A stretch of 64,000 bases of DNA from positions 1 to 64,000 of the forward strand of contig JAAILG010000043.1 of assembly GCA_012026655.1 (NCBI GenBank), in the 5' to 3' direction. The DNA comes from Hydrolagus affinis. Lineage: Eukaryota. A model generated the notes under the pieces. The model did no database searches. It was not told the origin of the DNA and was given only the letters and a program-made list of their open reading frames with translations. Position numbers and translations under genes: made by a program. Shown piece by piece: positions 1,634-50,695 of this stretch. Positions within the stretch are counted from its first letter, which is position 1. Each line of letters begins with the position of its first letter.

Positions 1634-2522
1634 TTATTCATGTTCTGTAGTGCCACTGAGTGCTTCAATTTGAAACAGCAGCTTTAGCAATGCTGTTGCA
1701 TTATAGGGGAAAATATTTCTTCCCTGTAACCTGGCAATAGTTTTTCTCAATTCAATCAAACATGTAACTGATTTGTTAAACACTGCCCCAGAGGATGCAC
1801 CCATATTTGTATTCTTTTCACCACAATAATGCAAACTTAAATTTCCAGGATCTGTTGTATCAAGATAACACTTCATTTTTTCTGAAACCTCCATTGGGTC
1901 AACACCAACTAGTTTAGTTTTCTTACTATTATTAACTAGCTTAGCTTCCTGGCTGTGAATATTAAAATCTGGCACTTCTACCGATTCAGAGTCAGAATCT
2001 TCAGAGTTTGCATAATCTACTAGACCTTGAGACTGCCCACCCAGGCAGAACATACTACTATTTATCAAAATTCCACGTTTGCTATTGTCTGAGGTATCTT
2101 TGTCCTTTCTTTGTTCTTCTTCAGGTGTTAAAATGTGACATGCTGAGAGGTTGAGAACTGACTGTGGCATATGTTCCCATGGATATTCCTTACTGCTTTC
2201 AGTGCCAGCGATAGTTCTCTCTTGTTTTTCTCCATCACTATGTTTACTGTCTTCATTAGCTACAGGTGGATGAATTAGTTCAGCTTCATCAAACCGATGG
2301 CAAATGCAAAGGAAATGTTGCCATTCCTCTCGAAGAAGCTTCAGATATCGGACAAAGTACTCCAAAAAACAGGTTTCAGTGGAAATCAGGAAGTCAAGAA
2401 GCACACAATGATCAAATGTCAAATTGTTTAAAAGCAACAGGAAAATACAATGTGGATTGAAACAGCTCTCATGTGCATTAAGAGAGTTGACTCCCCTTTC
2501 GTCATGATAGACATCAAAAAAT
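1634..2522 (-). CDS. LINS1: LINS1 (Lines homolog 1), last coding exon
   Basis: Acceptor ttccttccag|A at 2522. Translates FFDVYHDERG...NPHCIFLLLLNNLTFDHCVLLDFLISTETCFLEYFVRYLKLL and C-terminal LQGRNIFPYNATALLKLL, matching recalled Lines motifs. Stop TAA ends at 1634. Confidence 0.95.
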
Positions 2523-2559
2523 CTGGAAGGAAAAATAAAACAAGTTATAAATTCTGTGA

Positions 2560-2820
2560 TAATTTACTTGCTGGGGAACTCTGCTATAACACAGCGTCCA
2601 CAAAGGGTGGGTAACAGAACTGTTCGCACTGGATTCGCAACAGCTACTCCTGCTGGAAAGCATTACTATGCACATGTCTGGTGAGAACCTGGGACAAGCC
2701 TTGACTAATTCTTTCCACAGCCAAATAACCTGTCATGATCTATGTTCTCTGATGAAATATAGTCTGTCAGGCAAAGTATCAGAGACTATTGAATTATAGT
2801 CTTCAGGGAAAGAGAAAATT
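2560..2820 (+). mobile_element. Highly degenerate ancient SINE, AmnSINE2-like
   Basis: CTCCTGCTGGAAAG...GGTGAG...CCAAATAACCTG...CTTCAGGGAAAGAGAAA resembles a recalled AmnSINE2-type consensus. Confidence 0.35.
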
Positions 2821-3100
2821 TGGAGAAAAACATTCATGTTTCATGGAGTTGCCTCCATTTTTAAAATACTATTTCAGTGTCAATCAATTTGTGCAAGAAT
2901 GATTGAGAGAAATACTTATACTACACTGAAACTGCCTGGAAGCCTACAATAGGTTAATTAAAACTCAAAATGAACTGGGCCTAAAATAAGTTAACTTTAG
3001 ATTATTTTTGACAGGGATCCCTGTGACTAGACACATAAAATTCCTGGAGCTTTAATCATATGTAAAGCCACAGTCATAAGATCAAACAAGAGCTACCAAC

Positions 3101-3293
3101 CTGACAGAATGTATATAGATGTTCAATAATGCCCTGGCTGCCTCCACCATATCATCATCCTGCTCCAGGAAAACCAGAGAGACCCAGGCACAAGAATGAG
3201 TGAGACGTTTGGAATGTGCAGGAGACTTGAGGTGTATCCTTATGAACATCATCAGCTGATGTATACACGTCTGCAGCTGAACATTCAGACTCT
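3101..3293 (-). CDS. LINS1: LINS1 coding exon 5 (193 nt; missing from ORF track)
   Basis: ttttctcag|AG...GTCAG|gttggt. Encodes CAWVSLVFLEQDDDMVEAARALLNIY (Lines EQDD motif). Phases 1 and 2 fit the neighbouring exons. Confidence 0.93.
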
Positions 3294-3814
3294 CTGAGAA
3301 AAAAACAGAGAGAGAATTTCATTGTGGTTGGCTCAACGTTCTAAATACATTGAGGTTCAATTTATGTTATTTGCAAACTACATATGTTGTGTTAAGTGCA
3401 ACTTCCAGTTTACTATCAGTATGAATCAGTATGACAGGCATCTGTAATATGACACAGATGACATTGGCTGCTGGAATGTGTGACATCGGGATTAAATGGC
3501 TTTATGTACTGCTTGTTTTCACTCACTGTCCACTATTTGGGAATGTCTGAAATAAACTCAGATGTATAGAGGAAGCCATGAGAAACGACTGCCGTTGAGA
3601 ATGAAGGTAGTTAAGGGGAATTATTCCTGTTTAAGTGCTCTGAGATGCTGTCCGGCGTGGAGGGCACTATATAAATCGAAGTTGTTGTTGTTGTTGTTAT
3701 TCAAGTATATGTTTGTATCATTTCTGATTGACATTGTTAAATGTATGTATACATTTCAAATTAAAAAGTTGCCTTAGTAATCCTATGTAAAACAATGTGA
3801 AATGCTCAATATTA

Positions 3815-4147
3815 GCAATCATTGCATATGATATAGCGCTTTTCATGTCTCCTAGACATCTCAAATCACTTCACGGAATATACTGAAAAGTGAATTTACT
3901 GTATTTGTGGACAAAACACAGCAGCAAGTTGCACACAGCAATGTCCCACAAACAGCTGGGGATTCAGTGACTAAATTTTTTTGGGGAAGGATTTTTATCC
4001 CTGGAAAAGCGATACACCAATTGACTAATAACTAGGTTCCTGCTTCCCTCTAAGTAAACAGAGGCATGAGGACTAAAGAAACTTGCCCAACATTTTGCCC
4101 TGCAGGCAAGTACTCTAACCGCTGAATTTAAGTGTTCAAAGGATACC
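3815..4147 (-). mobile_element. tRNA-derived SINE, long variant with extra internal segment
   Basis: Head and tail shared with the dominant SINE, plus an extra CCCTGGAAAAGC...AAACAGAGGC segment also seen at 50035-50590. Confidence 0.75.
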
Positions 4148-4246
4148 ATCAATATTCATTTCACCTTATCCTGCATTACAAAAACAGTTCATATATCTAA
4201 ATTGTATTTTCAATCATTGCTAAATCTTTAGATGGATTCAAGTTAC

Positions 4247-4864
4247 CTTTATTTTCACCTTCAAATGTCCAGTTCTTCACTTTGATTTCCAAAGCTTTCA
4301 CCACAATGAGACTCACAGTCCTCAGCATCACCAGGTCTGGCCCACGATTTGAATCCTCATCACCAATTATCTCATTGCCTCCAAACAGATAGGTCATGGG
4401 ACTGACGGGAACCTGTTCCAACCAACTAGATACCAAAATTTGCAAAATGGCATTGGATACGGCCAGCAGGTCACCTTGCAAGTTTATGTCTTGCTGGGGT
4501 AGCATGCATGAAGAACTCTCACCAAACTTTTCACCAAACTGGCAAAGAACACACTGTTTGATCACCAAAAGCAGCTTCTTTTTAACAAAGTAATGAGCAG
4601 AGGAATTGATGAAGTCCAATATGTATGCGGTCTGTATGTATAAAGTCCTCAGACAAGAACAGTTTAGTTTTAGCTGGATTCTGATGGCACTAAAAACTTC
4701 AAGTATATCTATGATGGCTAGCAGATTATTTGTAGAATCAAAGGCACGCTCAGAGCTTTCTGCAGCATTGTTTGTTCTGGAGTCAATAAAATTAGTAGAA
4801 AACATGAAGGTGTACAAATCATCAAATACTGCGTCCAGTGGGGTAAGAAGTTTCATTATGATCA
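4247..4864 (-). CDS. LINS1: LINS1 coding exon 4 (618 nt)
   Basis: ttttgcag|TG...AAAG|gtaact. Encodes FVKKKLLLVIKQCVLCQFGE, FGG and PDLVMLRTVSLIVVKALEIK, similar to recalled human LINS1. Confidence 0.94.
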
Positions 4865-5286
4865 CTGCAAAAGTAGAGAATTGTAGATTTAAAATATTAT
4901 ATTACATACGAGATTGGTAAGTATTTGCCAGTGGAATTCTGGAATATTCTGGAAAATTGAAGCCAAACTGTAGCATCCAACTATTGTCTAAAAAGAAATA
5001 ATCCAGTTTAACAGAAAGCAGTATATTTTACCAACTGAGTCTTTGGTGGCAAGTAGTACCAAGGTTTTTAAGTTATTGTCCAGAATTGAACCTTCATCCA
5101 CAAGCCATAATACACACATCACCAATAGCAAACTATGCGACATAAACGAGTGAAAATCTGTAACAATTTCAATCTGACACATACCGAGACTCCCATCATG
5201 ATCTGCAATCTATAAGACAAAATATTCTGAATGTCAATGATTCTGACATCTAAAAAGATACATTACGGCCTGAAAAAATCACTAAC

Positions 5287-5428
5287 CTGTCTTGTTTGGA
5301 ATTTTTCTCTCGAAAACATCTTTCAATACAGCTGCAACAATTTCTAGACATTTTGCTGACAAGGGGTTTTGAGGGTCCTCTGAAAAAGTCTGAAGGCACG
5401 TCTTGAAACAGCTATCACAGGATAAATC
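5287..5428 (-). CDS. LINS1: LINS1 coding exon 3 (142 nt)
   Basis: tatttag|GAT...ACAG|gttagt. Encodes DLSCDSCFKTCLQTFSEDPQNPLSAKCLEIVAAVLKDVFERKIPNKT and keeps frame with both neighbours. Confidence 0.88.
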
Positions 5429-6607
5429 CTAAATACAGTAGAATAATATTTATTTATACAATAATACATTTGAATATTAAAGCTTGATAATACTTCATGT
5501 TTACTAAAGGGAACTGAACTCCCCAGAGTTCTTGTCATGGAATTAGATTCTAAAGGTACGAAAGCATAATTCTACTTTCAAAAGTAGGAATGTGGATTTT
5601 GATGTGGAATTATCACCACATAATCATAAACCAAGCCATTATTTATTTTAAACGTATTGATTCTAAATATATTGAACCTCTCCTCATTTGCTAATTCACT
5701 TGTAACTGGATCTCGAATACAATCAATTCTGTATTTGACAGTGCAATAAAGTTTAGAAACTTCTCAATTGGATGAATATTTGCGATAGATTTCTGCAATG
5801 CATTGAATAATGAAAGCCATTACCTTTTTACAATAACATTTATATATACTGTAAATGGCCGACAGTTTTCTAATAGAGTTATAAAACATTCTAGTGTATT
5901 TAATCTTGGTAGAGAGGCTAATTAAAGGATAAAAGGAAGTCAAGTGCTTAAATGGTTCAAGGACTCCCCATTACAACATCATTTAAAATTCTCTTAAGAG
6001 CATAAGAAATGCTAGATGTAAAAAGACCAAGGTCTATCTTGTTTGTCTTCCACTTTCCTGGCAGTGACATGCATGCATATGTCCCAAACTACCTATGTAC
6101 TATATCCCACTCTCAGCGCTTTGGGACATCCTCCCGACGTGAAAGGCGCTATATAAGTGGAATTTTGTTGTTGTTGTTGTTATAGGTAATAAGAGGTCAG
6201 GGTCCCCACAGGTTCAACTGGCTCCCAGTTTATGGTCTTAATTTATGGACTTCCTCCCAACATGAATGATGCTCTACAAGTGTAATTTTGTTGTTGTTAA
6301 TGACCAACATGACCTCTTGTGAACATTTAGCAACAACAAAACATGTTTAGTCTTATATTAAAAACAAGGAAGTATTGCATTATATAATAGATAAAACTGT
6401 ATTGAAAATATTTGGGGAAAAATTGTTTGTCATAGAGTTCACTTATACATAGCTAGCCACTTATACACTCATATCAATAAATTACTTCCAACAGCTAAAA
6501 CTCCAAATAACAAATAATATGGGCAGCATGTAGTTCAGTATACACGTTTTACACTATCAGGAGCAGGTATAAATAATAAAACTAAACAATTATTTTATTA
6601 ATATTAC

Positions 6608-6985
6608 AATAATCCTTACATTTGGTAAAATGTCTTTCATGTCAGAAGGCATGTCACATGCCTTTCATGTCACAGGATATACTGTAAAGTGAAGTGACTG
6701 TGTTTGTGTGAGCAGCAGCCAATTTATGCTCAACAATGTCCCACAGGTGCCATGAAATGGATATACAAGAACTACCATTATAATCAACGTTCTTTCTTTT
6801 ACAAGCTATGGTTTCTCATATAGTAATAATAATCCTTGAATTTGATATAGCGCTTTTCACATCTTCTAGACGTCTCAAAGCGCTCACGGAATATACTGTT
6901 AAGTGAATTGACTGTATATTTGTAGGCGAAACATGGCAGCCAATTGCGCACAGCAGTGTCCCACAAACAGTCATAATCAAATCCA
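6608..6985 (-). mobile_element. Two 5'-truncated SINE copies in a LINS1 intron
   Basis: ATAATCCTTG(A/C)ATTTGATATAGCGCTTTTCAC tail on the plus strand. Confidence 0.75.
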
Positions 6986-7063
6986 TGCAACATAGATGTA
7001 TAAAAACACGAGAATTTCCAAAACAAAACTGACTATTTGTTTGAAAAATGCTCTATTACTTAC

Positions 7064-7153
7064 TGTTGTTAAAATCTGGAAAAGAATTAGCGACGAAACA
7101 CATTTCATAGCAACATGAGACAACAGCTGATTGGAATGCTTGAACAGAAGAAT
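7064..7153 (-). CDS. LINS1: LINS1 coding exon 2 (90 nt)
   Basis: attcgtag|ATT...ACA|gtaagt. Encodes ILLFKHSNQLLSHVAMKCVSSLILFQILTT, resembling recalled human ICMFQNSDKLLSHMAAQCLALLLYFQ. Confidence 0.92.
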
Positions 7154-7763
7154 CTACGAATAGAACAAACTGTATATTAGTCTTACTTAGAAATGTAAAA
7201 CGTAGTATTTGAACAAAAAAAATCATGATCTACATATAGTATATTGTGTGGCCTAATTATGAATAAATTGTAGTAGGAAAACTGATTAAATGCAGGGGAA
7301 GATTGGTACGGAATTTTAAAGTGACAAAGTGACAACAATGTATTTATATAGTAATACATTTAAAAAATGCAAAGCAACAAGACAAAAGGTTATCACAATC
7401 ATGTTTAACAAAGCAGGAAAAGCATTCCCATAGCATATCTAGTCTCCAGTACACTGATCCAATGCAAACCTCTGGAATTTGAACTCATTTTTTATTGGGT
7501 ACCCTTCAGTCTACGGAAAATCAACTTGATCTGCTGATCAAATCAGCATTTCTAATCTATACAAGTAATGTATTTATGCCCAAAACATTAACTTGTCCTT
7601 TAGATGCTCATTGACCTGCTGAATGTTTTAAACTAATTACTGAATGAGAACAGATTAAATGCTTTATGTTTTTCAAACATAATCCTCTTTACCATTAAGA
7701 ATGCAAAGAAAATAATACATGTCACTTTTGAGATGGCTTATTTAAGAATGGGTTCACACTCAC

Positions 7764-8195
7764 CAGTTTAGATATAATTTCTGTATCTTCCAACAGAATT
7801 CTTATAGCTTTTGTGTAGGTTTCCCTGATATCTTCTTCCATTGCCCTGGAATGCACTTTAGAGTTTATCATCTGAATTAAAGTCATCTGAAGCATCAGAA
7901 TTTCATTTTTATTGCCATTTACAATCACTGCAGATTCACTAGGTTGCTTGCCATGACTATCTTCAGGCAATAGTGGCATGAATGGTAGTGTGGCATCAAT
8001 GGTAGTGGGCTGTGTAAAATGAACCCAGTTTCTCTGATCAGTAGATAAATTAAAGTCTGTTGATCTGTCTGATATATCTTTCATGTACATATCTGAATAA
8101 AGAAACTTTGCCAGATCCTGACTGCTGATGCTGGGTCTTTCTCCTGCGAACAGCTGCCCATGGAGCTGTTTAAATACTACCAAGAAATCTTCCAT
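7764..8195 (-). CDS. LINS1: LINS1 first coding exon (ATG at 8195; exon starts at acceptor 8258)
   Basis: Acceptor ttccccctctcttcgcag| at 8258. MEDFLVVFKQLH...EILMLQMTLIQMI...IISKL|gtgagt. The six exons total 2364 nt, giving 787 aa plus stop. Confidence 0.9.
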
Positions 8196-8449
8196 CACAG
8201 TATAATAGTTTGGCAGGTCAACTTCCGAAAGACCCAGTTCAAATAAATATCTTTAGATCTGCGAAGAGAGGGGGAAAAACAACATTACTTTCTCTCCCTC
8301 TGCAATTCAACATGATGAAACATGATGATCCCTCCATTTGGTATATCTTTCACCCAATTTGGATGCAAACCATCGACTGTCCAGTGCCTTTGGATGTCCT
8401 CTGACCTGAAAGGTGCTGTATAAATTCAATTTTGTTGCTGTTCGGAGTC

Positions 8450-8811: not shown

Positions 8812-9065
8812 TCTCTCTTTCCCTCGCTTCCTTCTCTCTCATCTTGCTCTTCTCTCTTCCTTCTCTCTCCTCGCTTCCTTCTCTCTTCCATCTCTCCTTC
8901 TCTCTCGTCTCTTCCCCCTCTCCTCTCTCTCTCTCTTCCTCCCATTTCTCTCTTCCCCTCTTCCCTCTCTTTCCCCCTACCCTTCCTTAGCTCTCTTCCC
9001 CACCTCCCTCTTTCTCTCCCATTCTTCCTTCATTCCCCTTCTTCCTTCCCTCTCTCCCACCCCCC
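8812..9065. repeat. CT-rich polypyrimidine low-complexity tract
   Basis: About 250 bp of almost only C and T. Confidence 0.9.
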
Positions 9066-9118
9066 AAAAAACTACATGTTACACAGTCTATATACAGTTA
9101 CAGTGATCCACGACCTAC

Positions 9119-9360
9119 CTGTCTGTCTGTAATTCTATAATGTAATTTTGTTGTTGTTGTGCCTGTGTGTGTGTGTCTATGTGTGTCTGTCTATTTGTGT
9201 GTGTTTGTCTACTTGTGTGTGTGTCTATTTGTGTGACTGTGTGACTGTCTGTATCTGTGTCTATTTGTTTGTGTGTGTGTGTGTCTATTTGTATGACTAT
9301 CTGTGTGTGACTGTCTGTATCTGTGTGTGTCTATGAGTATGTGTGTGTCAATCACTCAGG
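9119..9360 (-). other. LINS1: Possible LINS1 non-coding exon 1 (5' end uncertain)
   Basis: Donor CAG|gtaggt with the intron starting at 9118, next to the CpG island. An upstream exon is implied by the acceptor at 8258. Confidence 0.4.
9160..9350. repeat. Degenerate (TG)n microsatellite; another TG/CA tract at 10215-10295
   Basis: TGTGTGTCTATT-type units are directly visible. Confidence 0.9.
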
Positions 9361-9900
9361 CTCAGGCTGTTTGTGGCGTTGCCATAGTAACGGGCCGCCA
9401 CCTTCGCGCATGCTCAGTGCCGGGGGCGGGGAGGAGGGCGGCGGAGAGAGTGCGCAGGCGTGGCCCCGCTCCGGCCCGGACTGAAATGGCTCCGCAGCAA
9501 CAAGTTCCCCAGGAAATTACGTGCGGCCCACGCCTCGGAGTCGGGGTCTCGTCAGGCCCCGGTCACAGGGTTCCAGTCGGCAGGAGGCCTCGAACGATTG
9601 GAGCGGCTGCAGCTGCGAGGCCCTGCCGCCGAGAGCCGAGCACCGAGAGATATTAGTCACCGAACTACCAGCCTTGCACACACCCCACCCCCTCTCTCCT
9701 CCTCCTCCCCCCCCTCTCTCCTCCCTCCCTCCTACCTTCACCCTCCCCCGGCTCGGGCTCGGCCCGCCCTAGCGGCTCAGTGAGGATGCGTGGAGACGGA
9801 CCAATGAGGGCAAAAAGGGAGGCCAAGTGAGAAGGGGAAAAAAAAGAGAAGTGAGTGTAAGTGAGAAGAGATAGTAACTAACGCTCGCAGCTTCCACCTC
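9360..9900. promoter_or_regulatory. CpG-island bidirectional promoter of LINS1 and ASB7
   Basis: GC/CpG-rich block between divergent genes. RFX X-box GTTGCCATAGTAAC at 9378-9391, NRF1-like CGCGCATGCTCA near 9405 and TGCGCAGGCG near 9451, GC box GGGGCGGGG near 9423, outward-facing CCAAT boxes near 9597 (minus) and 9800 (plus). Confidence 0.85.
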
Positions 9901-10126
9901 CTTCCCTCCCTTCCTCCCGCCTTTCCTCCCTCCCCCCTTCCCTCCCCTCCCCTCCTACAACGAAAGGCTTTTTTTTTGGGGGGGGGTGGGGGAGGAAAAG
10001 AAACCCCACATCAATATTTTGTACTGGCCATGAAGCCAAATCGAGAAGATTCTTACGTTTGGGTGTTTTTCTTTGGGTGGGAGTTTGGGGGTTGGGAAAC
10101 ACACACAGGTTTTGTTCTTCCGCATC

Positions 10127-10157
10127 ATGGTCGGAAGCGTCAGGTCCAGCGTCAGAT
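10127..10157 (+). CDS. Putative ASB7 uORF part 1 (end of leader exon 1)
   Basis: ATC-ATG-G strong Kozak context; encodes MVGSVRSSVR; followed by donor AGAT|gtgagg. Confidence 0.45.
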
Positions 10158-11951
10158 GTGAGGGGTCGAGAGCCTGAGAGTGCACAGGTTGGCTGGCTCT
10201 ATGTGTCTGTACTGTATTTGTGTGTGTGTGTATACACATATATATATACACACACACACATTTGTATGTGTGTCTGCCTCTGTGTATGTGTGTTTACTGC
10301 AAGTATTTCATCTGTGTTTGGGGGGGAATCATTACTTTATTCAACGACTGTCTCCCAAACTCAAGACTAGTGTCAATAAACTTCGTTAGCTGCCCTCTTG
10401 ATCATGGTTTTTTTTTCCCCTTGACTGTGCCATTGCTGGCTGTGAAGTCTCCCAACAAAAGTTTTGTTTTTAATCAAACTCCTAAATTAGAGTTTCCTTT
10501 TGGGGAATTAAGTAGGGGAGGACATGGGGATGCTCTTAACTAAAATAGGTTTTTTTTTACTTTCTTTGCAGAACTGATACAGAGTAGGCCCTCCTGCACA
10601 ATAAGCTCATTTGAACATTAAACCAAGGACCACACATTAAGTAGAAAAACATTACCTATCTCGTGGCTAGCCAGATACTCAAACTCATGATGCTGTACAC
10701 AAATTAGCAGTTGTATTGGTTGCATATACAGTGCATACTCACCACACTTGACAGCAATTAACTGTAAAGTAATAATGCTTGTGTTTGATAGTGCCTTATG
10801 ATGTATTCGAGACGTCTCAAAGCACTTCACAGAATACACTGTAAAGTGAATTGACAATATTTTGTAGATGTAGGAGATCTTGAAGTGCAGTATCAAATAT
10901 AATGAGTATTATGTCAGTTTTGCACACTGTTGTTAAATGTCATTGCATTATAATTTGTATTATGAACATATTTTACATTTCTCTGGCCTAGATATGGTAT
11001 TGGTACTTTTTAATTCAGTATCTTTTATTTATTTTACAGCCATATGTCACACTAGTAAAGTTATATTTTTCTTCTTTAAATTTACTTATGCCAATCCTTG
11101 GTTTATGCTTGCATAAGAAGTTTGTTCCCAGGATTCTGGCAACACAATGTTTTAACTGGCCAGTGTGCATTTTGATACGGCCTTGCATCAAATCTATTTG
11201 TCAACACTGAAATTTGCCTTGGATGAAGTACAGATATGCCTTCAAATGCTAAACTGCACACTGTGTATATTTCTCTATCTAAATTAGTGAGAATATTCTG
11301 AATGTTGAGCTGAAGAATCAAGCATCCCATGAACCTATAATAATGTCCAGTGAAATAGAAATACTGTATATACAATATTTATCCAGTAACTTGGCAAAAA
11401 TTGAGTGCATTTGCAAGAGAGACATTAGTGTGTGTCTAAACAAAATAAGGTTAATAATGTAAGGTCCTTTTAATTCTACCGTGATTTATAACATCCCTCT
11501 TCTTGCCTAATATAATTTTTAAAAACAAGACCCTGATGGAATAGAACATCTTCCTCAGCTCGAATGAAATCTAGGTCGTGAGTATAACCAAATAGCTGTT
11601 TAGCTGCACATTGCATCATCCAATTGGATCTGTATGAGATATTGGTTAACTAGAATGATTTGCACTTTTTGGGTTACCCATTATTGTAATGATGTCATTG
11701 GGGTGCAACTTGGATTTGCTAAAGTGATACCACAGGTGAAAAGATAAAATAGCCACATCCTTCATTCCTCATATTGACTTATAGCTATGGACAGCAAGTC
11801 AGTATTAGGAATGAATGGTGTGATTGTTTTAGCTTCTCATCTGAATATTGGTGAGATAGAAATGCATTTTTCTTTCATGTATTTCTCCATTCATCAATGC
11901 AGCCTGTGTGTTAACTATGTTAATAAATACTGATTTATCTTTCACCTGTAG

Positions 11952-12003
11952 GCACTGAAACCTGGAAGAAACTACTTCCCTTCAAGGAAACTGCTACTAA
12001 AAC
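11952..12003 (+). CDS. Putative ASB7 leader exon (52 nt), uORF part 2
   Basis: Acceptor tctttcacctgtag| and donor AAAC|gtaggt (alternative TAG|gtgacc at 12007). Open in frame: (C)TETWKKLLPFKETATK. Confidence 0.45.
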
Positions 12004-13183
12004 GTAGGTGACCAGAATTGTACTCCAAACTGTTGGGAAATATATATTCAAGTATATGTAATAAAGTAGTAAATAGACTCTTTTAAATCTGTTGAATTTT
12101 GAAATAATTCAGCAATTAATTGACGCCATTTGTCTCAAGAGTATACAGTATAAAATTGTTACTAAACTGCACCATGTCGAAGATGATGTGTCATATAACT
12201 AGCATTTTCTGTGTGATCATTGGTAGTGCTAACTCGTGTACTGTATTCCCCAAATGCTCCAGTACTGTAGTAGATTAGTTTTTTTTCACAAGTGGTACTC
12301 TACAAGTGGATGGGGTTAAAAGGTATCAAGTTATTGCACTATAGCAGTATTTGTTTGCTACTAAATTCAGTCCAGCACATATTTTTCATGATCATTTGTA
12401 TTGGCTTAGTACTTCTTTAGGCATGTTGATTCCAAAATACATTTTAACAGTGATTTAAAGAGCTAAGAATATATGGAAATGGTAAAGGCACTTAAATTGG
12501 TGAGGGCAGTTTTATGCCTGGTTTATACTGTGAGTTATGTGCTGCTTCAATGCAAAAAGTGCATCAAATTATGCTTTTTATATTTTTAAAAAAGTATGAA
12601 GCAGGTTCGAGGCATGACCATTACCCCTGAAGTCTGCTTGCTGAGACCACCTTTAAGTGTTTTTGCTAAGACCTTAATTCATTCCATTGCAGAATAAATA
12701 TAGGCAGTAGAAGTTGTTGTGGCCATTCTTGGGTGGTTTATTATGCCAATCATCTCTTTTAAAAGTCAGTGCTTATTAGTGAATCCCTTATCAGTTCCTG
12801 GCAAGAACATTAATAATAATAATTCTTGCATTTGATATAGCGCTTTTCACGTCTTTTTAGAGCAGGTCAGTATAAATCAGGTTTACCGTTGCCAAACACA
12901 CTACTGGAAACTAACAAATCATTGTACCAGTGTAAACAGTGGATATCCAAAATAAGGACCCAAGTTCTGACATTTTTGAAAAATGTACACTACATTTATG
13001 TATAATTTAAAAATTGCTGAACCGTTAATTTGAGTTACTACCTCTCGTTTCACCTCACTGGAGTTTGATATATAATGTGTACATATATAGTATAATCTAA
13101 AAATCTAATGTGGAGTTCCTTAATATAGTTTGCCAGCAAAGAATTATCTATGTTTTCATTTAAATTTTGTAAGTTTGGTTACA

Positions 13184-13494
13184 TGAAGCTGTAGCTCAAT
13201 GGTTAGACAACTCGCCTTGCAAGCAAGAGACCTGGGTTTGATTCCCGACAGGCCAAAACCTGGCCAAGTATCATTGCTCCACACACCTGATAGTAACCAC
13301 TCGAGAGAAACAAATAATAAGAATTTGGTCGATCAATCCATGACTGTTTGTGGGGCACTGTTGTGCGCGATTGGCTGCTGCGTTTCGCCCACAAATATTC
13401 AGTCAATTCATTTTACAGTTTATTTTGTGAATTGCTTTGAGGTGTCTAGAAGATGTGAAAAGAGCTATATCAAATGGAAGGAATATTATTATTA
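13184..13494 (+). mobile_element. Full-length tRNA-derived SINE (dominant family, about 310 bp)
   Basis: A box TAGCTCAATGG, B box GGTTTGATTCC, Deu-like 3' body, L2-like tail ending (ATT)n. Confidence 0.88.
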
Positions 13495-13729
13495 CTTGTC
13501 TATAAAGTACATTTCCATTACTCCCCATGCCTGTGGTTCTTGACAAATTCATAATTTTGCAAAGAAAGAAATATTTATAATCGATCAGAATAGAATCTCC
13601 AGTAATTTCTACTTTTGATTTCTGAACTAAACTGATCCACATTTAATTTTTTTTGCTGCAATTTTGGACCATTGGTTGACGAGTGTTATTGCGCAACTGA
13701 TTTAGAATTTTTAAATGAAACTTTTGAAG

Positions 13730-13772
13730 GAAATTGACCTCATGCATCGGCTGTGACAACGTGACGCACTAG
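13730..13772 (+). CDS. Putative ASB7 uORF part 3 (5' part of first ASB7 coding exon)
   Basis: Acceptor cttttgaag|G. Encodes (T)KLTSCIGCDNVTH*; TAG at 13770-13772, ASB7 ATG at 13774. Confidence 0.45.
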
Positions 13773-13773
13773 C

Positions 13774-13984
13774 ATGTTCCATCATCACTGTAGAAGAAAT
13801 CCGGAACTGCAGCAGGAACTGCAGATCCAAAACGCTGTTGCAGCTGGTGATGTTCATACAGTGCGCAAGATGCTTGAGGAAGGCTATTCTCCGAATGGTC
13901 GGGATGCAAATGGATGGACACTACTTCATTTTTCCGCTGCTAGAGGCAAAGAAAGATGTGTTCGAGTATTCTTAGAGCATGGAG
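13774..13984 (+). CDS. ASB7: ASB7 (ankyrin repeat and SOCS box 7) coding exon 1 (211 nt)
   Basis: MFHHHCRRNPELQQELQIQNAVAAGDVHTVRKML...VFLEHG, nearly identical to recalled vertebrate ASB7. Donor GAG|gtaagt. Confidence 0.97.
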
Positions 13985-17913: not shown

Positions 17914-18519
17914 CTGATACCACTGTTAAAGACTTAATTGGCGGTTTCACTGCTTTGCATTATGCGGCTATGCATGGCCGAGCACGAATTGCAAGGTTGA
18001 TGTTAGAATCAGAACACAGACCTGACATTATCAATGCAAAAAGCAATGATGGCTGGACTCCTCTCCACGTGGCTGCTCATTATGGCAGAGATTCATTTGT
18101 TAAACTTCTACTGGAATTCAAGGCTGAGGTTGACCCTCTCAGCGATAAAGGCACCACACCACTTCAACTCGCCATTATCCGAGAACGCTCAAGCTGCGTC
18201 AAAATCCTTTTGGATCACGATGCCAACATTGATATTCAAAATGGTTTCCTACTACGATATGCAGTGATCAAAAGCAACCACTCGTACTGTCGAATGTTCC
18301 TTCAAAGAGGGGCAGACACAAACCTTGGCCGACTTGAGGATGGTCAGACTCCACTGCACTTGTCTGCACTAAGGGATGATGTGCTTTGTGCACGGATGTT
18401 GTACAATTATGGTGCAGACTGTAATACAAGGAACTATGAGGGACAGACGCCTCTGGCTGTATCTATTAGTCTATCTGGAGCCAGCAGACCCTGCCTGGAT
18501 TTCTTACAGGAAGTCACAA
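17914..18519 (+). CDS. ASB7: ASB7 coding exon 2 (606 nt, ankyrin repeats)
   Basis: ctttttcag|CT...ACAA|gtacgt. Several ankyrin repeats (GFTALHYAA, GWTPLHVAA, GTTPLQLAI, GQTPLHLSA). Confidence 0.97.
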
Positions 18520-21786: not shown

Positions 21787-21926
21787 GACAGCCTAGAAAT
21801 TTACAGGATCTGTGCCGAATTAAAATCCGGCAGTGCCTAGGCCTACAGAATTTGAAAGGACTTGATGAACTCCCTCTTGCAAAGGTCATGAAAGACTATT
21901 TGAAGCACAAGTTTGATGATATCTGA
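21787..21926 (+). CDS. ASB7: ASB7 coding exon 3 (SOCS box; missing from ORF track)
   Basis: tttctctag|GA. Encodes QPRNLQDLCRIKIRQCLGLQNLKGLDELPLAKVMKDYLKHKFDDI*. Total CDS 957 nt = 318 aa. Confidence 0.97.
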
Positions 21927-24615: not shown

Positions 24616-27503
24616 ATGTTACTGTCTGTGTGTGTACGGATAAGTAAGGGCATACTTGTAACACAGATTTTTTGTGTGCAAGGTACACAATACCAAACAG
24701 CAGAATAGATTGTGAAACTCACACTGACTTGATTTCTTCTTGTAAATAATCCATTCCAGTTACTCGCTCTGAAAATAATCTTATTTAAACTTTCCTGGCC
24801 ACAGTTTGTTCAATGTAGAGATTCGGAAAAAACTTTATTGAGCAAGACTAAATCCACAGTAATGTTATCATTTCCTCTAATCCAATATTGTACCACTGCC
24901 TGAGATTGTGGGAATTTACCCGAAGTGAATCGCAGTGAATTGGACTATATATTGATTGTGGTTTTTGGTCATACTCTTTTTTTTCCTATCTCTTAGAACC
25001 AAAATATACATATGACTTCCCTTTGTTTAATATGCATTATTCACTCTCTCCTCGGAGGGATACATGCTTGCTTGACTAAGATCAGAGAATTGAGGTGCAG
25101 ATTGGTATGACCCAAGGCTTGAGGACCCCAGAGTGTATTTGGGTATGGATAACCTGGATGTTGGCAGCACTGATATACGATTGTAGCAACATATCCATGC
25201 AACTGCACCTACAAGCATAAAGTCCACCTTGTAGTATACCTTGTACTGAGGTTTACTGTTTAGGGTTTACTATCTTCATTGCAAAATGGCCAAAGTAAAG
25301 ATGTATAATTTTTTTTTAAATTCAAAATAATGCATAAGTAGGCCAAAACTCAATATGGTTTGCATACAATTGTACCAACAAACCACCAGACTCTGGCTTT
25401 TGGCTAGCTCTAGTCATTTTACATTTAGAAGAAAGACAACATTCTCAAAGATGTGATGAGGCACTATATTAAATACAAGGATTATTATGATTATCATTCT
25501 AGTACCCTAAAGGTTTGATTACTTGGGGTTGGGAGATGCATAATGTTCCAGAGTTTCAGGAGGAATTGAAAGTATGAAGCTTACCACCAGATGGTGCAAG
25601 TAAATCTGCACCAATGCATACGGTAATTGTCAGTGTTGCTTGTCTTTTTCTCCCAAAATTGGAGTGAAATAACTTCCCATGGACAGTGACAAGCAATGAG
25701 TATGAACTTTGTCTTGGCAAGAAAATGTTTTCAGAGACAAGAAGGCAAATAGTTGGTTGGGGGAGGGAAGTCAACCCAGCATCTCGCATGAATTGCTGAG
25801 GGGGTGCACATAGAGTGTCCTCCGATGGAGTTCAGCAGATAATGGATTAGTCCGTAAGGAATCTACAGTCATTCTACTTTACAGTAAATACTGTGAAGTG
25901 CTTTGAGACGTCCTCTTGACGTGAAAGCACTATCAAATGCAAGGATCATGATATGCTGTCTCATATGAATACCTAGAACAGCTTTGATAGCCACCACAAT
26001 CACAATTCAATACATTAAATGTCACGCATTCATACCATTATCCAGGGATTCAATCTTTAGTGCAGAATGCCGCCAAACACCCCTCCCCCCAAAAAAAAAT
26101 CTCAATTTAAAAATGAGGATGGAAATATTTGCTCTTTGGTCTATCCCTAAATCACCCCATAATGTTAAGAATTGCAATTCCTACTGAGGCACAGGATCAC
26201 AATTGTTAAACATTTTCAAATTTGTATTGCAGATATGTGACACTTGCTATCGGATGGATCCTTCCATTAATTATAACTCAACAGCTATCTTTAAAAACTA
26301 AAGAAATTTGTGTTCGGGGCTGTATAGTTTTATGTATTAAGTTTGCTAACTAGACAATATTTTAAAAATTTACTTTACTCATCCAAAAACAAGCAGGAAG
26401 TTATTTTAGCCACTTTCAGCACAAACAAATAAAAGCCTTAAATCTGCATTAGACTGTGGATATTTTTGTAAAGGTTTTGTCAATGGCTGTGTCACCTGCT
26501 CGGGAAGTGAATAAATTGTAAATGCAGGGATGCAATTGTAGTAAATGGTCCATGCTCTAATGAAATGCTGTTCCTCAGAAAGTAATATTGTTCAGGTGCA
26601 TTGATTGTGAGATATGAGCTTAAGCAAAATATCCTTTTTCTACTTTATTGATTACATTCTTTGCCTTTTGACAGAGGTTAATTCAGATCAGAATGAGGAA
26701 TGCTATCGTAGTGGCCTAGGTTAAACTTTCTGATCCCAATGTTATTAAAGTAAATGCCTGTTTGACTGATTTGGATCTTTCAAATGAATTGACATTTCAC
26801 AGTGCTTAGATGTGCATTGAAGCGCTCTACAAAATTACTTTTTTTTTAAAGCACCAAGTTAGCATTTTTCAAATGATGAGTTCCATAAGAGTCACTAATT
26901 TCGCAGACCTGAGGCTAACACGAAAATATTGAGTTGTCAGGGTTTGAGTACATATGAACTGTGTAAAATGATGTTGATAAGTGATAGAATGTAAATGAAG
27001 TATCTTTCAATTACGACTTTCTTTCTCTCCCATTAGTTCAGACTAAATTAGAACAGATTGTATCTAAACATTTCATCTCCACCCACACTTTCAGGAATCA
27101 GTGAAAAATGTCAAGCTGTGCTGCCACACAAAAATACAACAAAAGTAAACCAAGATCAGGAAATTCAATTTGGGGGATTTTGAAGAGTTCCTGAAACTCA
27201 TTAATCTGGATGACTGGAAACTCTAGTAAAGAATCCTGCATTGATAGCCTGCTGGCATAATGCATAAATGACTACACCAAAGAGGGAAACTGATGGCTTA
27301 AGTATTCACACTTTTTTAATAACTATTATGTATTTTTAATATTAACAAGGAGTGTTCGCTCACTTCATCATTTGTGTGACATTACCATGTTAATTTAGTA
27401 ATGCGCCAGCCACCACACTCATTCCAACATGCAATTCTACCTGTGTATTCACTATAGGCAATATTGGTTAGCTGTGTTACACAGTGTGCGCAATTGTATC
27501 ACG

Positions 27504-28265
27504 TCAACGTCTCCATTCGCATGGCTCTCACCTCCACCTTCCCAGTCTGCCCCTAAAACTCTCCGAACCTGTGCACAACCTAGGCGTCAGATTCGACTCC
27601 TTCCTCCCTCACATCCGATCCCTCACCAGCATCGCCTTCTTCCACCTCAGACGGATTGCCCATCTCTGGCAATACCTCACCCCAAAAGCCGCTGAAACCC
27701 TGGTCCACTCCTTTGTCACATCTAGGGTGGACTATACCAATGCCCTCCTCGCCAGTCTCCCCTCCTCCATAATCGATAGAGTCCAGCTGAATCAGAACTC
27801 TGCCGCTCATGTTCTCACCAAACTTCGCTCCCCCATTACCCCAGTCCTTGCCAGATTTCACTGGCTCCCTATCCCAGAGAGGATGCTCACCCTTGTCTTC
27901 AAATCCCTCCACTCCTCTGCACCCCCCCCTACCTCTCTGACCTAATCTCTCCTCAAACCAGCACCCGTTGCCTTCGCTCCACTGGGTCTGCCCTCCTCCA
28001 TGTTCCCCGAATCCTCCACTCCACCCTCGGTGGCCATACCTTCAACCGCTATGCCCCGAGGATCTGGAATTCCCTTCCTCACTCCCTTCTCCTCGACCCC
28101 TCTTTTCTCAGCTTCAGGTCCCAACTGAAGACCTTTCTCTTCGACCGCGCCTTTGGTCACCTTTCTTCCCCTGCCCCTGGCTCAATCCCGGGATCCGCTA
28201 TTGTGAAGCGCTCTGAGATGCCGTCCGGCGTGGAGGACGCTATATGAACTGAAGTTGTTGTTGTT
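27504..28265 (+). mobile_element. L2-clade LINE 3' fragment
   Basis: NLGVRFD...AFFHLRRIA...LVHSFVTSRVDYTNALL...PITPVLARFHWLP; tail ends (GTT)n. Confidence 0.92.
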
Positions 28266-47127: not shown

Positions 47128-47454
47128 GACAAGTGGTGAGCATTGATGGAAATTCTAGCGAGATACAATTAGGTGGAGGATTTTAGTGATGATAGGTGAT
47201 TTTGCATTTTAAGAGTAGTTTGACAAAATATACCTTTACAACATTCCATATGTTAAGAAGTGTTCTACTCTAGAACTGGGAAGATATGCGCTTGTGACCT
47301 GTATTCCACTACTTCTATGTAATAATCTTGGTATTAAAATGCTTGGGTGTTCATATCCAATAAAATAGTCACACTTCCAACTGTCTGCTCTGAAGAGAAA
47401 ATTCTGTAAGTCATGCCTGGGTATTACTTGATATAAATACCATTTTGAAAGCTA

Positions 47455-48686
47455 TTTCAACCTGTCCCTCATCCGGGACTGTTCCCATTGCCTTCAAAAC
47501 CGCCACCATCACCTCCATCCTAAAAAAAAACCTTTCCTAGATGCATCGCAGCTATCTAGCTACCAGCCCATCTCCAACCTCCCCTTCCTTTCCAAGATAC
47601 TTGAAAGAGTGGTTGCCTCCCAGCTCCGCACTTTCCTCACACAACACTCACTCCTCGAACCCCTCCAATCGGGTTTCCGTGCCTCCCACAGCATGGAAAC
47701 TGCACTGGTCAAGGTCACAAACGATATCCTGACTATCTGTGACCAGGGCTCCTCATCCTCTTCGACCTATCAACTGCCTTTGATACCATGGACTATGGTA
47801 TCCTCCTCCACCCTCCTCAACCTGCAAGGATCTGTCCTCGAATGGTTCCGATCCTATCTTTCCCACCACTTCACTTCGTCTCTTCCAACGGATTCTCCTC
47901 CAGCCCCTGCACAGTCACATGCGGTGTTCTCCGGGGCTCTGTCCTTGGCCCCCTGCTCTTCACCCTCTCACTCTCCCCCTGGGCGACATCATCCGTAGAC
48001 ATGGAGTAAATTTCCACATGTACGTGGATGACACCCAAATCTACCTATCCGCATCAACCTTCGATTCCAGGACCACTGGTGTTCTGACTGGATGTCTGTC
48101 GGACATTGAGAACTGGATGAGGGCAAATTTCCTACAACTCAACGTCATCAAGATGGAAGCCCTCCTGATTGGCTCACGTCAGCGTCTCCGCACCTCAGGC
48201 GCTGACAACATCAGCGTTTAAGGCTGCTCTCTCCACCTCTCGAAGCCAATCAGGAATCTGGCCATGTTGTTCGACCCCGAACTATCCTTCCTCCCCCAGA
48301 TCCGCTTCATGACTGGCACAGCCTTCCATCACCTCCGCAATATTGCCGGACTCCACCACTACCTCACCCCCCATGCCGCCGAAACCCTCATCCATGCCTT
48401 TATCACTTCCAGGCTCAACTATAGGAACTCTCTGCTCGTCGGCCTCCCCAGCTCCTCCCTTCACAGGCTGCAGATCATTCAGAACTCTGCAACTCGTGTA
48501 CTCTCCCATACCAGGCTTCGCGACCACATTACTCCCACCCTCGCCCGTCTCCACTGGCTCCCCCCACCCACCCACCCACCCACCCACACCCCCTTCCCCC
48601 CGCTCGGGTCCCAACCAGACTGTTCAGCTCTTTGGGATGTCCTCCTAACGTGAAAAACGCTATATAAGTGCAATTTTGTTGTTGTT
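47455..48686 (+). mobile_element. L2-clade LINE, frameshifted RT fragment
   Basis: QSGFRASHSMETALVKVTND, GSVLGPLLF, FHMYVDDTQIY; (GTT)n tail. Confidence 0.93.
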
Positions 48687-49861: not shown

Positions 49862-50695
49862 AACAATAATAATAATCCTTTGATATTTGATATAACGCCT
49901 CTTTACATCTTCTTGACGAATATGCTGTAAACCAAATTAACTGTTTTGTGGGGAAAACATAGCAGCAAATTGCACACAGCACTGTCCCACAAATAGTCGT
50001 GGATTAAGGACTGAATTTTTAAAAAGTAATTATTACCCCTGGAAAAGCAATCCGCCAATCGATTAAGAACCATGTTCCTATGTACAACAACAAAACTACA
50101 TTTATAGAACGCCTTTTGCATCTGAAGGAAGTCCAAGGCACTGAACAGTCAGGTCGGGACCCATAGAGGGGGAGGGTAGGGGGGAGGGGCAGGCGTGAGT
50201 TAGGAGGGGAGGGAGAGGGTTGGAAGGGCAGCAGAAGGCATGATCGAAGAGGAGGGTCTTGACACCGGCCTTGAATGAGGCAAGGGAGGAAGTGAGACAA
50301 AGGGACTGTGGGATGGAGTTCCAGAGTGACGGGGCAGGGAGGCTGAAAGCCCGTCTGCTGATGGTAGGGCTGGTCGGGCGGGGTACATGTAGCAGACTGG
50401 AGCCTGCTGAATGGAGGGGGTGGGCAGGTTCATAGGGGTACAACACGTTGGAGAGATAGGAGGAGGCAAAGCCATGCATGGGCTTGAAAGTGAGGATGAA
50501 ATCGATCCTCTGGGGGATGGGGAGCCAATGGAGCCAGGCAAAGGTGGGAGTGATGCGATCATGGAACTTACTGCAACGTAAACAGAAGCGTGTGGAGTAA
50601 GGAAACCTGCCCATCATTTCACTCTGTCAGGAATCAAATCTTCTCCTCTCACTTGAGAGGTGATTTCTCTAACCACTAACCTACAGGACTCCACA
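49862..50695 (-). mobile_element. Long-variant SINE split by an L2 insertion (L2 at about 50085-50563, minus strand)
   Basis: SINE 3' half at 49862-50080 and 5' half at 50570-50695; the interval encodes DRITPTFAWLHWLP with a (GTT)n-type tail. Confidence 0.85.

Follow-up and report, generated by a model that had tools for sequence, protein, structure and literature searches.

Does the ATG at position 10127, upstream of ASB7 in the chimaera Hydrolagus affinis, open a second cistron, or does it belong to a leader that restrains translation of the main protein? We addressed this question in a window of 64,000 nt (contig JAAILG010000043.1, positions 1 to 64,000 of the forward strand). The gene is ASB7, whose 318-amino-acid product matches Mobula ASB7 at 99%, and its head-to-head neighbour is LINS1, recognized by the Pfam domains LINES_N and LINES_C. 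Published abstracts describe ASB7 as a substrate receptor for Cullin5 that is linked to heterochromatin and to control of the spindle, so its dosage matters. A preliminary description of this DNA had proposed a conserved microprotein on a bicistronic mRNA, a splice-dependent switch on ASB7 translation, or both. We think it probable that the ATG at 10127 opens one of about six upstream open reading frames (uORFs) within a multi-exon leader that would jointly lower ASB7 synthesis in cis, and that the peptide of the 41-codon form is incidental.

The structural elements of the proposed uORF are present as first described. The sequence around its ATG gives a strong Kozak context (A in position -3, G in position +4). 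Joining 10127-10157, 11952-12003 and 13730-13772 (31, 52 and 43 nt, all at GT-AG sites) gives 41 codons and a TAG that a single C separates from the ASB7 ATG at 13774, and in this splice model the frame is offset by 1 from that of ASB7. Use of the donor at 12007 would instead give a 28-codon uORF whose stop is the last codon of the exon. The 41-codon peptide has one CxxC motif, with Cys at 33 and 36, and is without a membrane segment; within exon 11952 its frame is open for 26 codons, stop to stop. Whereas the ATGs, their contexts and their frames under each splice model are read directly from the DNA, we infer the splicing and the transcription start site. Features are collected in Table 1.

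Table 1. Features of the ASB7 leader and coding exons (positions in the window).
Feature	Position	Strand	Remarks
Two upstream ATGs with a common stop	9786..9830	+	9786, 14 codons; 9804, 8 codons
Start of second spliced uORF	10030..10157	+	44 codons in the splice model of the preliminary description
First 31 nt of the proposed uORF	10127..10157	+	candidate donor GAT/GTGAGG at 10157
Strongest leader acceptor	10550..10572	+	score 8.2; in the mouse leader a 98-nt exon follows a short first intron
Probable leader exon	11952..12007	+	acceptor rank 5/198; tandem donors 12003, 12007
Leader part of the ATG exon	13730..13773	+	carries CxxC codons and TAG of the proposed uORF
4-codon uORF	13742..13756	+	weak Kozak context; stops 17 nt before the ASB7 ATG
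TAG-C-ATG at the ASB7 start	13770..13776	+	AG provides the ASB7 start with its -3 A
ASB7 first coding exon, part	13774..13984	+	211 nt, with a strong donor site at 13984
ASB7 second coding exon, ankyrin repeats	17914..18519	+	
ASB7 last coding exon, SOCS box region	21787..21926	+	completes the 318-aa frame

We ranked the splice sites of the leader by a rough score, with 198 AGs as acceptors and 250 donors. The donor at 10157 ranked 6 of 250; an alternative at 10187 ranked 15, and its use would stop the ORF at 16 codons within the exon. The best acceptor (rank 1 of 198) equals both coding acceptors in score, has a branch-like motif at -33 and lies 414 nt past donor 10157, and joining the two brings in a TAA after 10 codons. 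The preliminary description had noted this further acceptor; the position it gave, 10571, is the last intron base, and the exon would start at 10572. The ATG at 10127 might open no long uORF in vivo: the 10572 exon, donor 10187 or a downstream transcription start site would leave 10-16 codons or none, and the 41-codon frame would be an artefact of the chosen joins and without effect. The standing and branch-like motif of acceptor 10572 speak for such an account, as does the mouse Asb7 leader, in which exons of 98 and 75 nt lie between a 375-nt first exon and a 104-nt last leader exon. So does the yield of the splice models, only 1 of 90 of which produced the 41-codon AUG-initiated ORF lying wholly upstream of the ASB7 ORF (the others gave mostly 7-31 codons). 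We nevertheless regard it as unlikely, given the rank of donor 10157 and the lack of any convincing donor within 300 nt after 10572 (best score 0.4); moreover, 17 of the window's 7872 AGs reach an acceptor score of at least 8.0, and one such site in a 1.8-kb intron is therefore not rare.

Acceptor 13730 is weak (rank 81 of 198), and homology to other vertebrates, set out below, indirectly supports it and exon 11952 as used exon parts. A 43-nt zone free of AG and a branch-like motif make a weak acceptor at 13773 conceivable, but we do not favour it as the main acceptor (rank 128 of 198, with the preceding 40 nt homologous to amniote exon sequence). The donors at 12003 and 12007, 4 nt apart and with near-equal scores (1.4 and 1.9), lead to different outcomes of 41 and 28 codons, and the TAG of the longer form lies 212 nt before the next junction. 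Together with shark and teleost annotations that include ASB7 isoforms with a missing or extended N-terminus, these properties would suit a regulated switch in which the 41-codon form would block ASB7 and invite nonsense-mediated decay, whereas after the 28-codon form 44 nt would remain for ribosomes to reinitiate. Such a switch seems improbable to us, because the 4-codon uORF at 13742 inside the 44-nt gap and the 44-codon ORF upstream would blur clean toggling, and the human exon end, compared by eye, agrees with 12007 no less well than with 12003.

Chance expectation was assessed with 5000 dinucleotide shuffles each of the 484-nt leader and of a 254-nt version. A uORF of at least 41 codons appeared in 2073 of 5000 shuffles of the former and in 902 of 5000 of the latter. 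Fewer shuffles held one that also ended within 10 nt of the ATG (95/5000 and 109/5000, respectively) or, with the last four bases fixed, one of at least 41 codons ending at the TAG (231/5000 and 312/5000). The length of the uORF is thus unremarkable, and length and abutment together are uncommon (2-6%), a figure that takes no account of the free choice among 90 splice models. That so long a uORF should also adjoin the ATG is uncommon in the shuffles, and this counts against our preferred explanation. The abutting stop itself likely results from one T preceding a conserved AG, which already forms the -3/-2 bases of the ASB7 Kozak context. As for the motif, of 674 stop-free stretches of 41 codons in the window, 50 contained a CxxC.

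Under the splice model of the preliminary description the leader contains six upstream ATGs; the other five, including that of the 4-codon uORF at 13742, had been overlooked. Those at 9786 and 9804 would be part of the leader only if transcription starts upstream, as we infer from the 375-nt mouse first exon. The 44-codon uORF begins upstream of the ATG at 10127, overlaps it in another frame and stops 89 nt before the ASB7 ATG; a homologue search with the 43-codon frame from 10030 returned no candidate. In such a leader, scanning ribosomes would start at 9786, 10030 or 10127 and would mostly be lost, and reinitiation would be rare for those whose stop lies 1 nt from the ATG, as in the 41-codon form, or 17 nt from it, as in the 4-codon uORF. 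ASB7 would then be made by ribosomes that scan past the upstream ATGs or reinitiate after an earlier stop. A brake on ASB7 by uORFs is plausible, and it fits the human leader, a 730-nt sequence with nine uORF calls, five of them with ATG. Both species have several ATG uORFs in a long multi-exon leader. Our search of the literature found no study of ASB7 uORFs.

The ATF4 leader has short early uORFs, then uORFs near the main start. The ASB7 leader resembles those of ATF4 and GCN4 (GCN4 distances from section 13 of PMC10275272) in this order, with the 14- and 8-codon uORFs first and inhibitory ones later. Short early uORFs might then permit reinitiation and the long one inhibit, with eIF2-alpha phosphorylation causing bypass and raising ASB7 under stress. 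Human ASB7 has been reported to be ER-stress responsive (PMC5890977), but the passages of that paper on the response concern promoter elements and leave the UTR unmentioned. The inhibitory arrangement is also absent from the human list, in which no uORF adjoins or overlaps the main ATG and the last ends 18 nt before it, and loss of DENR left mouse Asb7 translation unchanged (log2 change -0.04, adjusted p 0.99). We therefore consider stress control of this kind quite improbable.

TURBS offer another precedent for closely spaced cistrons, and their core motif, UGGGA, is complementary to 18S. According to the relevant part of PMC10275272, TURBS of caliciviruses and influenza B have stop and start at most 20 nt apart and out of frame, and the 1-nt gap of the proposed model lies within this distance of about 20 nt. 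UGGGA was not found in the 95 nt before the stop, nor was there a strong fold near it (-34.4 versus -32.5 +/- 4.1 kcal/mol); the missing motif and ordinary fold stability argue against TURBS-type reinitiation.

We then compared the leader indirectly with those of bony vertebrates, through run-ons (back-translated proteins) and published tables. The last 40 nt (13734-13773) were homologous to the amniote leader, with 0 of 250 null sites scoring as well, and were not significantly similar to frog and percomorph run-ons (28/250 and 60/250). Exon 11952 was weakly similar to the upstream exon of percomorphs: four of five queries gave 9-14 of 250 null sites, the fifth none. When 25 N-terminal run-ons were searched against the leader by tblastn, only short matches emerged (best E 0.013), many on the wrong strand. 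Homology of the ATG at 10127 to the mammalian exon-1 ATG of P0064 and P0224 was rejected, as 163 and 159 of 600 null ATGs, respectively, scored as high. Alignment of the last 40 nt to amniote leaders requires single-base gaps within the CxxC tail (three in P0161 and P0156, two in P0035). In 96 of 98 run-ons from bony vertebrates the residue before Met is Arg, and the AG of the TAG matches the Arg codon (AG-G); a stop at -4..-2 is impossible in 32 of the 98 and still possible in 66, because the third codon base is unknown. From these comparisons, neither the stop position nor the CxxC frame appears to be kept in bony vertebrates, and the peptide and its frame are predicted not to be conserved between distant vertebrates.

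The human counterpart is a 22-codon uORF that, like the chimaera ORF, crosses the leader's last junction in phase 2 and in the same frame. In both species the junction-crossing uORF runs up against an internal ATG, 32-33 nt ahead of the ASB7 start, that begins a 4-codon ORF. The human uORF stops at this ATG, whereas the chimaera codon is TCA and the frame would run to 1 nt from the ASB7 ATG. The common junction phase hints at common ancestry, with a 1 in 3 expectation by chance; over the common exon, 2 of 17 residues are identical by eye. In a bolder version, a spliced phase-2 uORF leading into a 4-codon uORF some 32 nt ahead of the start would form a module for translational control dating back to the origin of jawed vertebrates. 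Loss of the intervening stop in the chimaera lineage would then have extended the spliced uORF to a 41-codon CxxC microprotein with its end at the start of ASB7. A donor shift of 4 nt would toggle between this and the 28-codon form, and splicing would thereby determine how much of the Cullin5 adaptor is made. We place little credence in it.

Least probable is the conserved, functional CxxC microprotein of the preliminary description, which these comparisons do not support. In ASNSD1/ASDURF and MIEF1-MP, too, an upstream ORF starting with AUG shares its mRNA with an unrelated main protein, and the ASNSD1 uORF is spliced, like the 41-codon frame. The strong Kozak start, canonical joins across three exons, apparent conservation of the last two exons as DNA and a junction phase shared with a translated human uORF all agree with such a microprotein. 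However, ASDURF (96 aa) and MIEF1-MP (70 aa) have strongly positive PhyloCSF and human-to-fish homologues, shown by no ASB7 uORF: the human c15riboseqorf100 and c15riboseqorf101 are recorded as young, de novo and PhyloCSF-negative, with 0 MS studies, in the entries of PMC10032668. In the conserved-sORF files searched, an ASB7 uORF was absent and the ASNSD1 uORF was present in all three species files. The supplements of PMC10073203 list MIEF1 and neither ASB7 nor ASNSD1; those of PMC7889888 lack ASB7 but also the ASNSD1 control, and so are uninformative. The short, diverged human counterpart, the frameshifted tail alignment, the single CxxC of a kind common by chance and the tested exon-1 ATGs all stand against the microprotein, as do the contiguous pieces of the uORF, for which a Pfam search gave no match. 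Probably, the 41-codon form represents only one splice variant, and its peptide is incidental.

A presumably repressive, uORF-rich leader accords better with what persists. By indirect comparison of the chimaera with human and bony vertebrates, uORFs are retained at the locus and their peptide is not, the pattern looked for in sequence-independent repressive uORFs. Judged by alignment, the conserved entity is DNA, namely the 40 nt before the ATG together with the 4-codon uORF, and selection appears to act on the leader DNA and on having uORFs, not on the peptide. Two broader scans bore on other matters: a metagenome scan confirmed 8 of 174 candidate stretches by identity and coverage, none with a vertebrate ASB7 locus, and a bacterial promoter scan, irrelevant to the ASB7 leader, was empty. 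If the preferred reading is true, the ASB7 leader merely joins the many rich in uORFs and has little general interest. One lead does merit keeping, the 4-codon uORF, whose ATG lies at -32 in the chimaera and -33 in human and whose stop falls 17 and 18 nt before the main ATG, respectively; it has the same length and place in human and a cartilaginous fish and is directly testable in human cells.

The preliminary description had proposed a conserved bicistronic microprotein and/or a splice-dependent switch on ASB7 translation, specified by a spliced upstream ORF (uORF) of 41 codons. The arithmetic is correct: joining 10127–10157, 11952–12003 and 13730–13772 (31, 52 and 43 nt) through GT–AG sites gives 41 codons and a TAG, followed by one C and the ASB7 ATG, and use of donor 12007 instead of 12003 gives 28 codons, as described. 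Splice sites were ranked by a rough position-weight score, in which known coding acceptors scored 8.2 and 8.0 and known coding donors 7.8 and 2.7. Donors 10157, 12007 and 12003 ranked 6th, 8th and 11th of 250, and acceptors 11952 and 13730 ranked 5th and 81st of 198. The top-ranked acceptor, 10572, leads to a TAA at codon 11 when joined to donor 10157. Because no good donor was found for it and 17 of 7872 AGs across the window score 8.0 or more, this acceptor may be a chance site; counting against chance, the exon sizes of a mouse Asb7 transcript (375, 98, 75, 104 and 262 nt; supplement row of PMC4568590), together with its short first intron, place a leader exon at the equivalent position. 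Among 90 splice models, the 41-codon ORF arose in 1, overlap with the main ORF in 3 and ORFs of 7–31 codons in the other 86. By judgement rather than computation, the 41-codon form is improbable as the main isoform; its presence as a minor isoform is a better prospect, if still an unlikely one.

Conservation was assessed using ASB7 proteins whose gene calls extend upstream of the normal Met (run-ons), together with published tables. When back-translated and compared with 13734–13773, the run-ons of two amniote-like proteins beat 250 of 250 null ATG sites, three more were matched by 2, 2 and 7 of the 250, and four were not significant (17–60 of 250). These comparisons support 13734–13773, for which the nearest upstream AG is acceptor 13730, as a conserved exon leader. 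The same alignments contain two or three single-base gaps within the C-terminal CxxC tail of the ORF (Cys 33 and 36), and the peptide frame is therefore not kept. Arg precedes Met in 96 of 98 run-ons, consistent with AG-G-ATG, indicating that the AG of the TAG doubles as the −3/−2 Kozak bases of ASB7 and that one base decides the stop. A stop at −4 to −2 is impossible in 32 of the 98 (percomorph spliced isoforms and frogs) and undecidable in 66.

Percomorph ASB7 proteins (P0129, P0010, P0040 and relatives) carry an annotated 13-residue N-terminal extension, apparently from an upstream exon with marginal similarity to exon 11952, and neobatrachian frog ASB7 carries one of 9 residues; on these annotations, the coding frame seems to have taken in leader ATGs on more than one occasion. 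The annotated start of shark isoforms P0072 and P0131 is the second Met (residue 32), which points to alternative splicing near the first coding exon or to a choice between start codons there.

Two Ribo-seq uORFs are catalogued for human ASB7, one of 114 codons and one of 22, and each is listed as young, de novo, PhyloCSF negative and without a mass spectrometry study (supplement rows of PMC10032668). Together with the broken frame of the CxxC tail, these entries speak against a conserved microprotein, which we consider very improbable. Conserved-sORF files of human (among the matches listed), mouse and zebrafish include the control ASNSD1 uORF and no ASB7 uORF. The PMC10073203 supplement material covered includes MIEF1 and not ASB7, and that of PMC7889888 was uninformative on ASB7 uORFs. 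A study of 1517 animal conserved-peptide uORFs does not name ASB7 in its main text, and its list may bear on the microprotein claim. Literature searches returned no study of ASB7 uORFs: in the portions covered, 10.1101/2025.09.23.678073 includes ASB7 and uORF terms unrelated to ASB7 uORFs, and PMC9941348 names ASB7 solely as an ATF4 interactor.

The 730-nt human leader has at least nine uORF calls (PMC10908861, supplement file 11), none ending less than 18 nt from the ATG among the matches listed. An ATG uORF at −33 (15 nt, ending 18 nt before the start) is non-zero in one of four program columns there, and matches a 4-codon window uORF in length and position (table below). Of 48 distinct run-on ends, 20 have an in-frame Met between −27 and −33, which is internal in 9, a count to be read knowing that gene callers favour Met starts; homology to the 13742 ATG was demonstrated for the amniote-like group alone. 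In one amniote-like cluster, the ATG equivalent to 13742 has no stop and lengthens ASB7 by 11 residues. In human, the 22-codon uORF spans the last leader junction in phase 2, and the A of its TGA stop is the A of the internal ATG at −33 (entries in PMC10032668 and PMC10908861). The 41-codon ORF shares this phase and frame but has TCA in place of TGA; frame agreement is expected 1 time in 3 by chance. By eye, with donor 12003 as anchor, the human residues that the last leader exon encodes can be reached from the window codons with at most one base change at 12 of 17 positions (chance 0.007), with 2 identical residues, and a shifted register ending near 12007 fits at each of the 9 final positions (chance 0.0001, uncorrected for the number of registers tried). 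Each register suggests orthology for exon 11952; the registers disagree on donor and frame, and on these alignments the peptide is conserved under neither.

Under the preliminary splice model and given a start near 9770, the leader contains six upstream ATGs (uATGs), among them that of the 4-codon uORF at 13742 and ATG 10030, where a 44-codon spliced uORF opens upstream of ATG 10127. No homologue of this uORF (10030–10157 at its start) was found; its middle is aromatic-rich. In shuffles, a uORF of at least 41 codons arose in 2073 of 5000 484-nt leaders and 902 of 5000 254-nt leaders; when the stop also had to lie no more than 10 nt from the ATG, these counts fell to 95 and 109, leaving the abutting stop as the sole uncommon trait of the 41-codon ORF. 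Of 674 stop-free 41-codon stretches, 50 contain a CxxC. With a pI of 9.4 the peptide is basic; it has no membrane segment, and its contiguous pieces gave no Pfam match above cut-off.

The best fit, which we hold to be moderately probable, is that the leader, rich in uORFs, is repressive and the peptide incidental. Start codons, frames and distances are the directly observed part of this mechanism. Ribosomes starting at well-placed uATGs would be diverted and, with 41 codons translated and 1 nt remaining, ordinary reinitiation would be unlikely (general background and PMC10275272), so that the 41-codon isoform would behave as an overlapping uORF does, leaving leaky scanning as the source of ASB7. 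Shorter isoforms would leave 44–236 nt before the ASB7 ATG, yet the 4-codon uORF would be encountered. The TAG of the 41-codon ORF lies 212 nt ahead of the next junction, making decay possible. Neither a TURBS core nor unusual structure was detected ahead of the stop. Mouse Asb7 translation is the same after DENR loss (supplement row of PMC6547434), a result that lends no support to reinitiation dependence. Passages of PMC5890977 describe an ER-stress response via promoter elements and do not mention the UTR.

Features of the LINS1–ASB7 region in window coordinates
Feature	Position	Strand	Remark
LINS1 exons	1634-8252	minus	GC-rich promoter region common to LINS1 and ASB7
4-codon uORF, 15 nt	13742-13756 (-32)	plus	Ends 17 nt before ASB7 ATG, within homologous block
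ASB7 coding exons	13774-13984, 17914-18519, 21787-21926	plus	318 aa

LINS1 (Pfam LINES_N and LINES_C) and ASB7 lie head to head on opposite strands, with a GC-rich stretch near 9000–10000 between them. Window ASB7 agrees with ray and catshark ASB7 at 307–308 of its 318 residues. The same seven sites set it apart from each of the three elasmobranch sequences compared; at two of these, 224 and 234, it has the bird and rat state. These comparisons point to a chimaera. A repeated element lies at 13170–13490 and in many other places, and reverse-transcriptase fragments recur at 27472–28247, 47432–48653 and 50102–50626; these are putatively SINE-like and decayed LINE-like, respectively.
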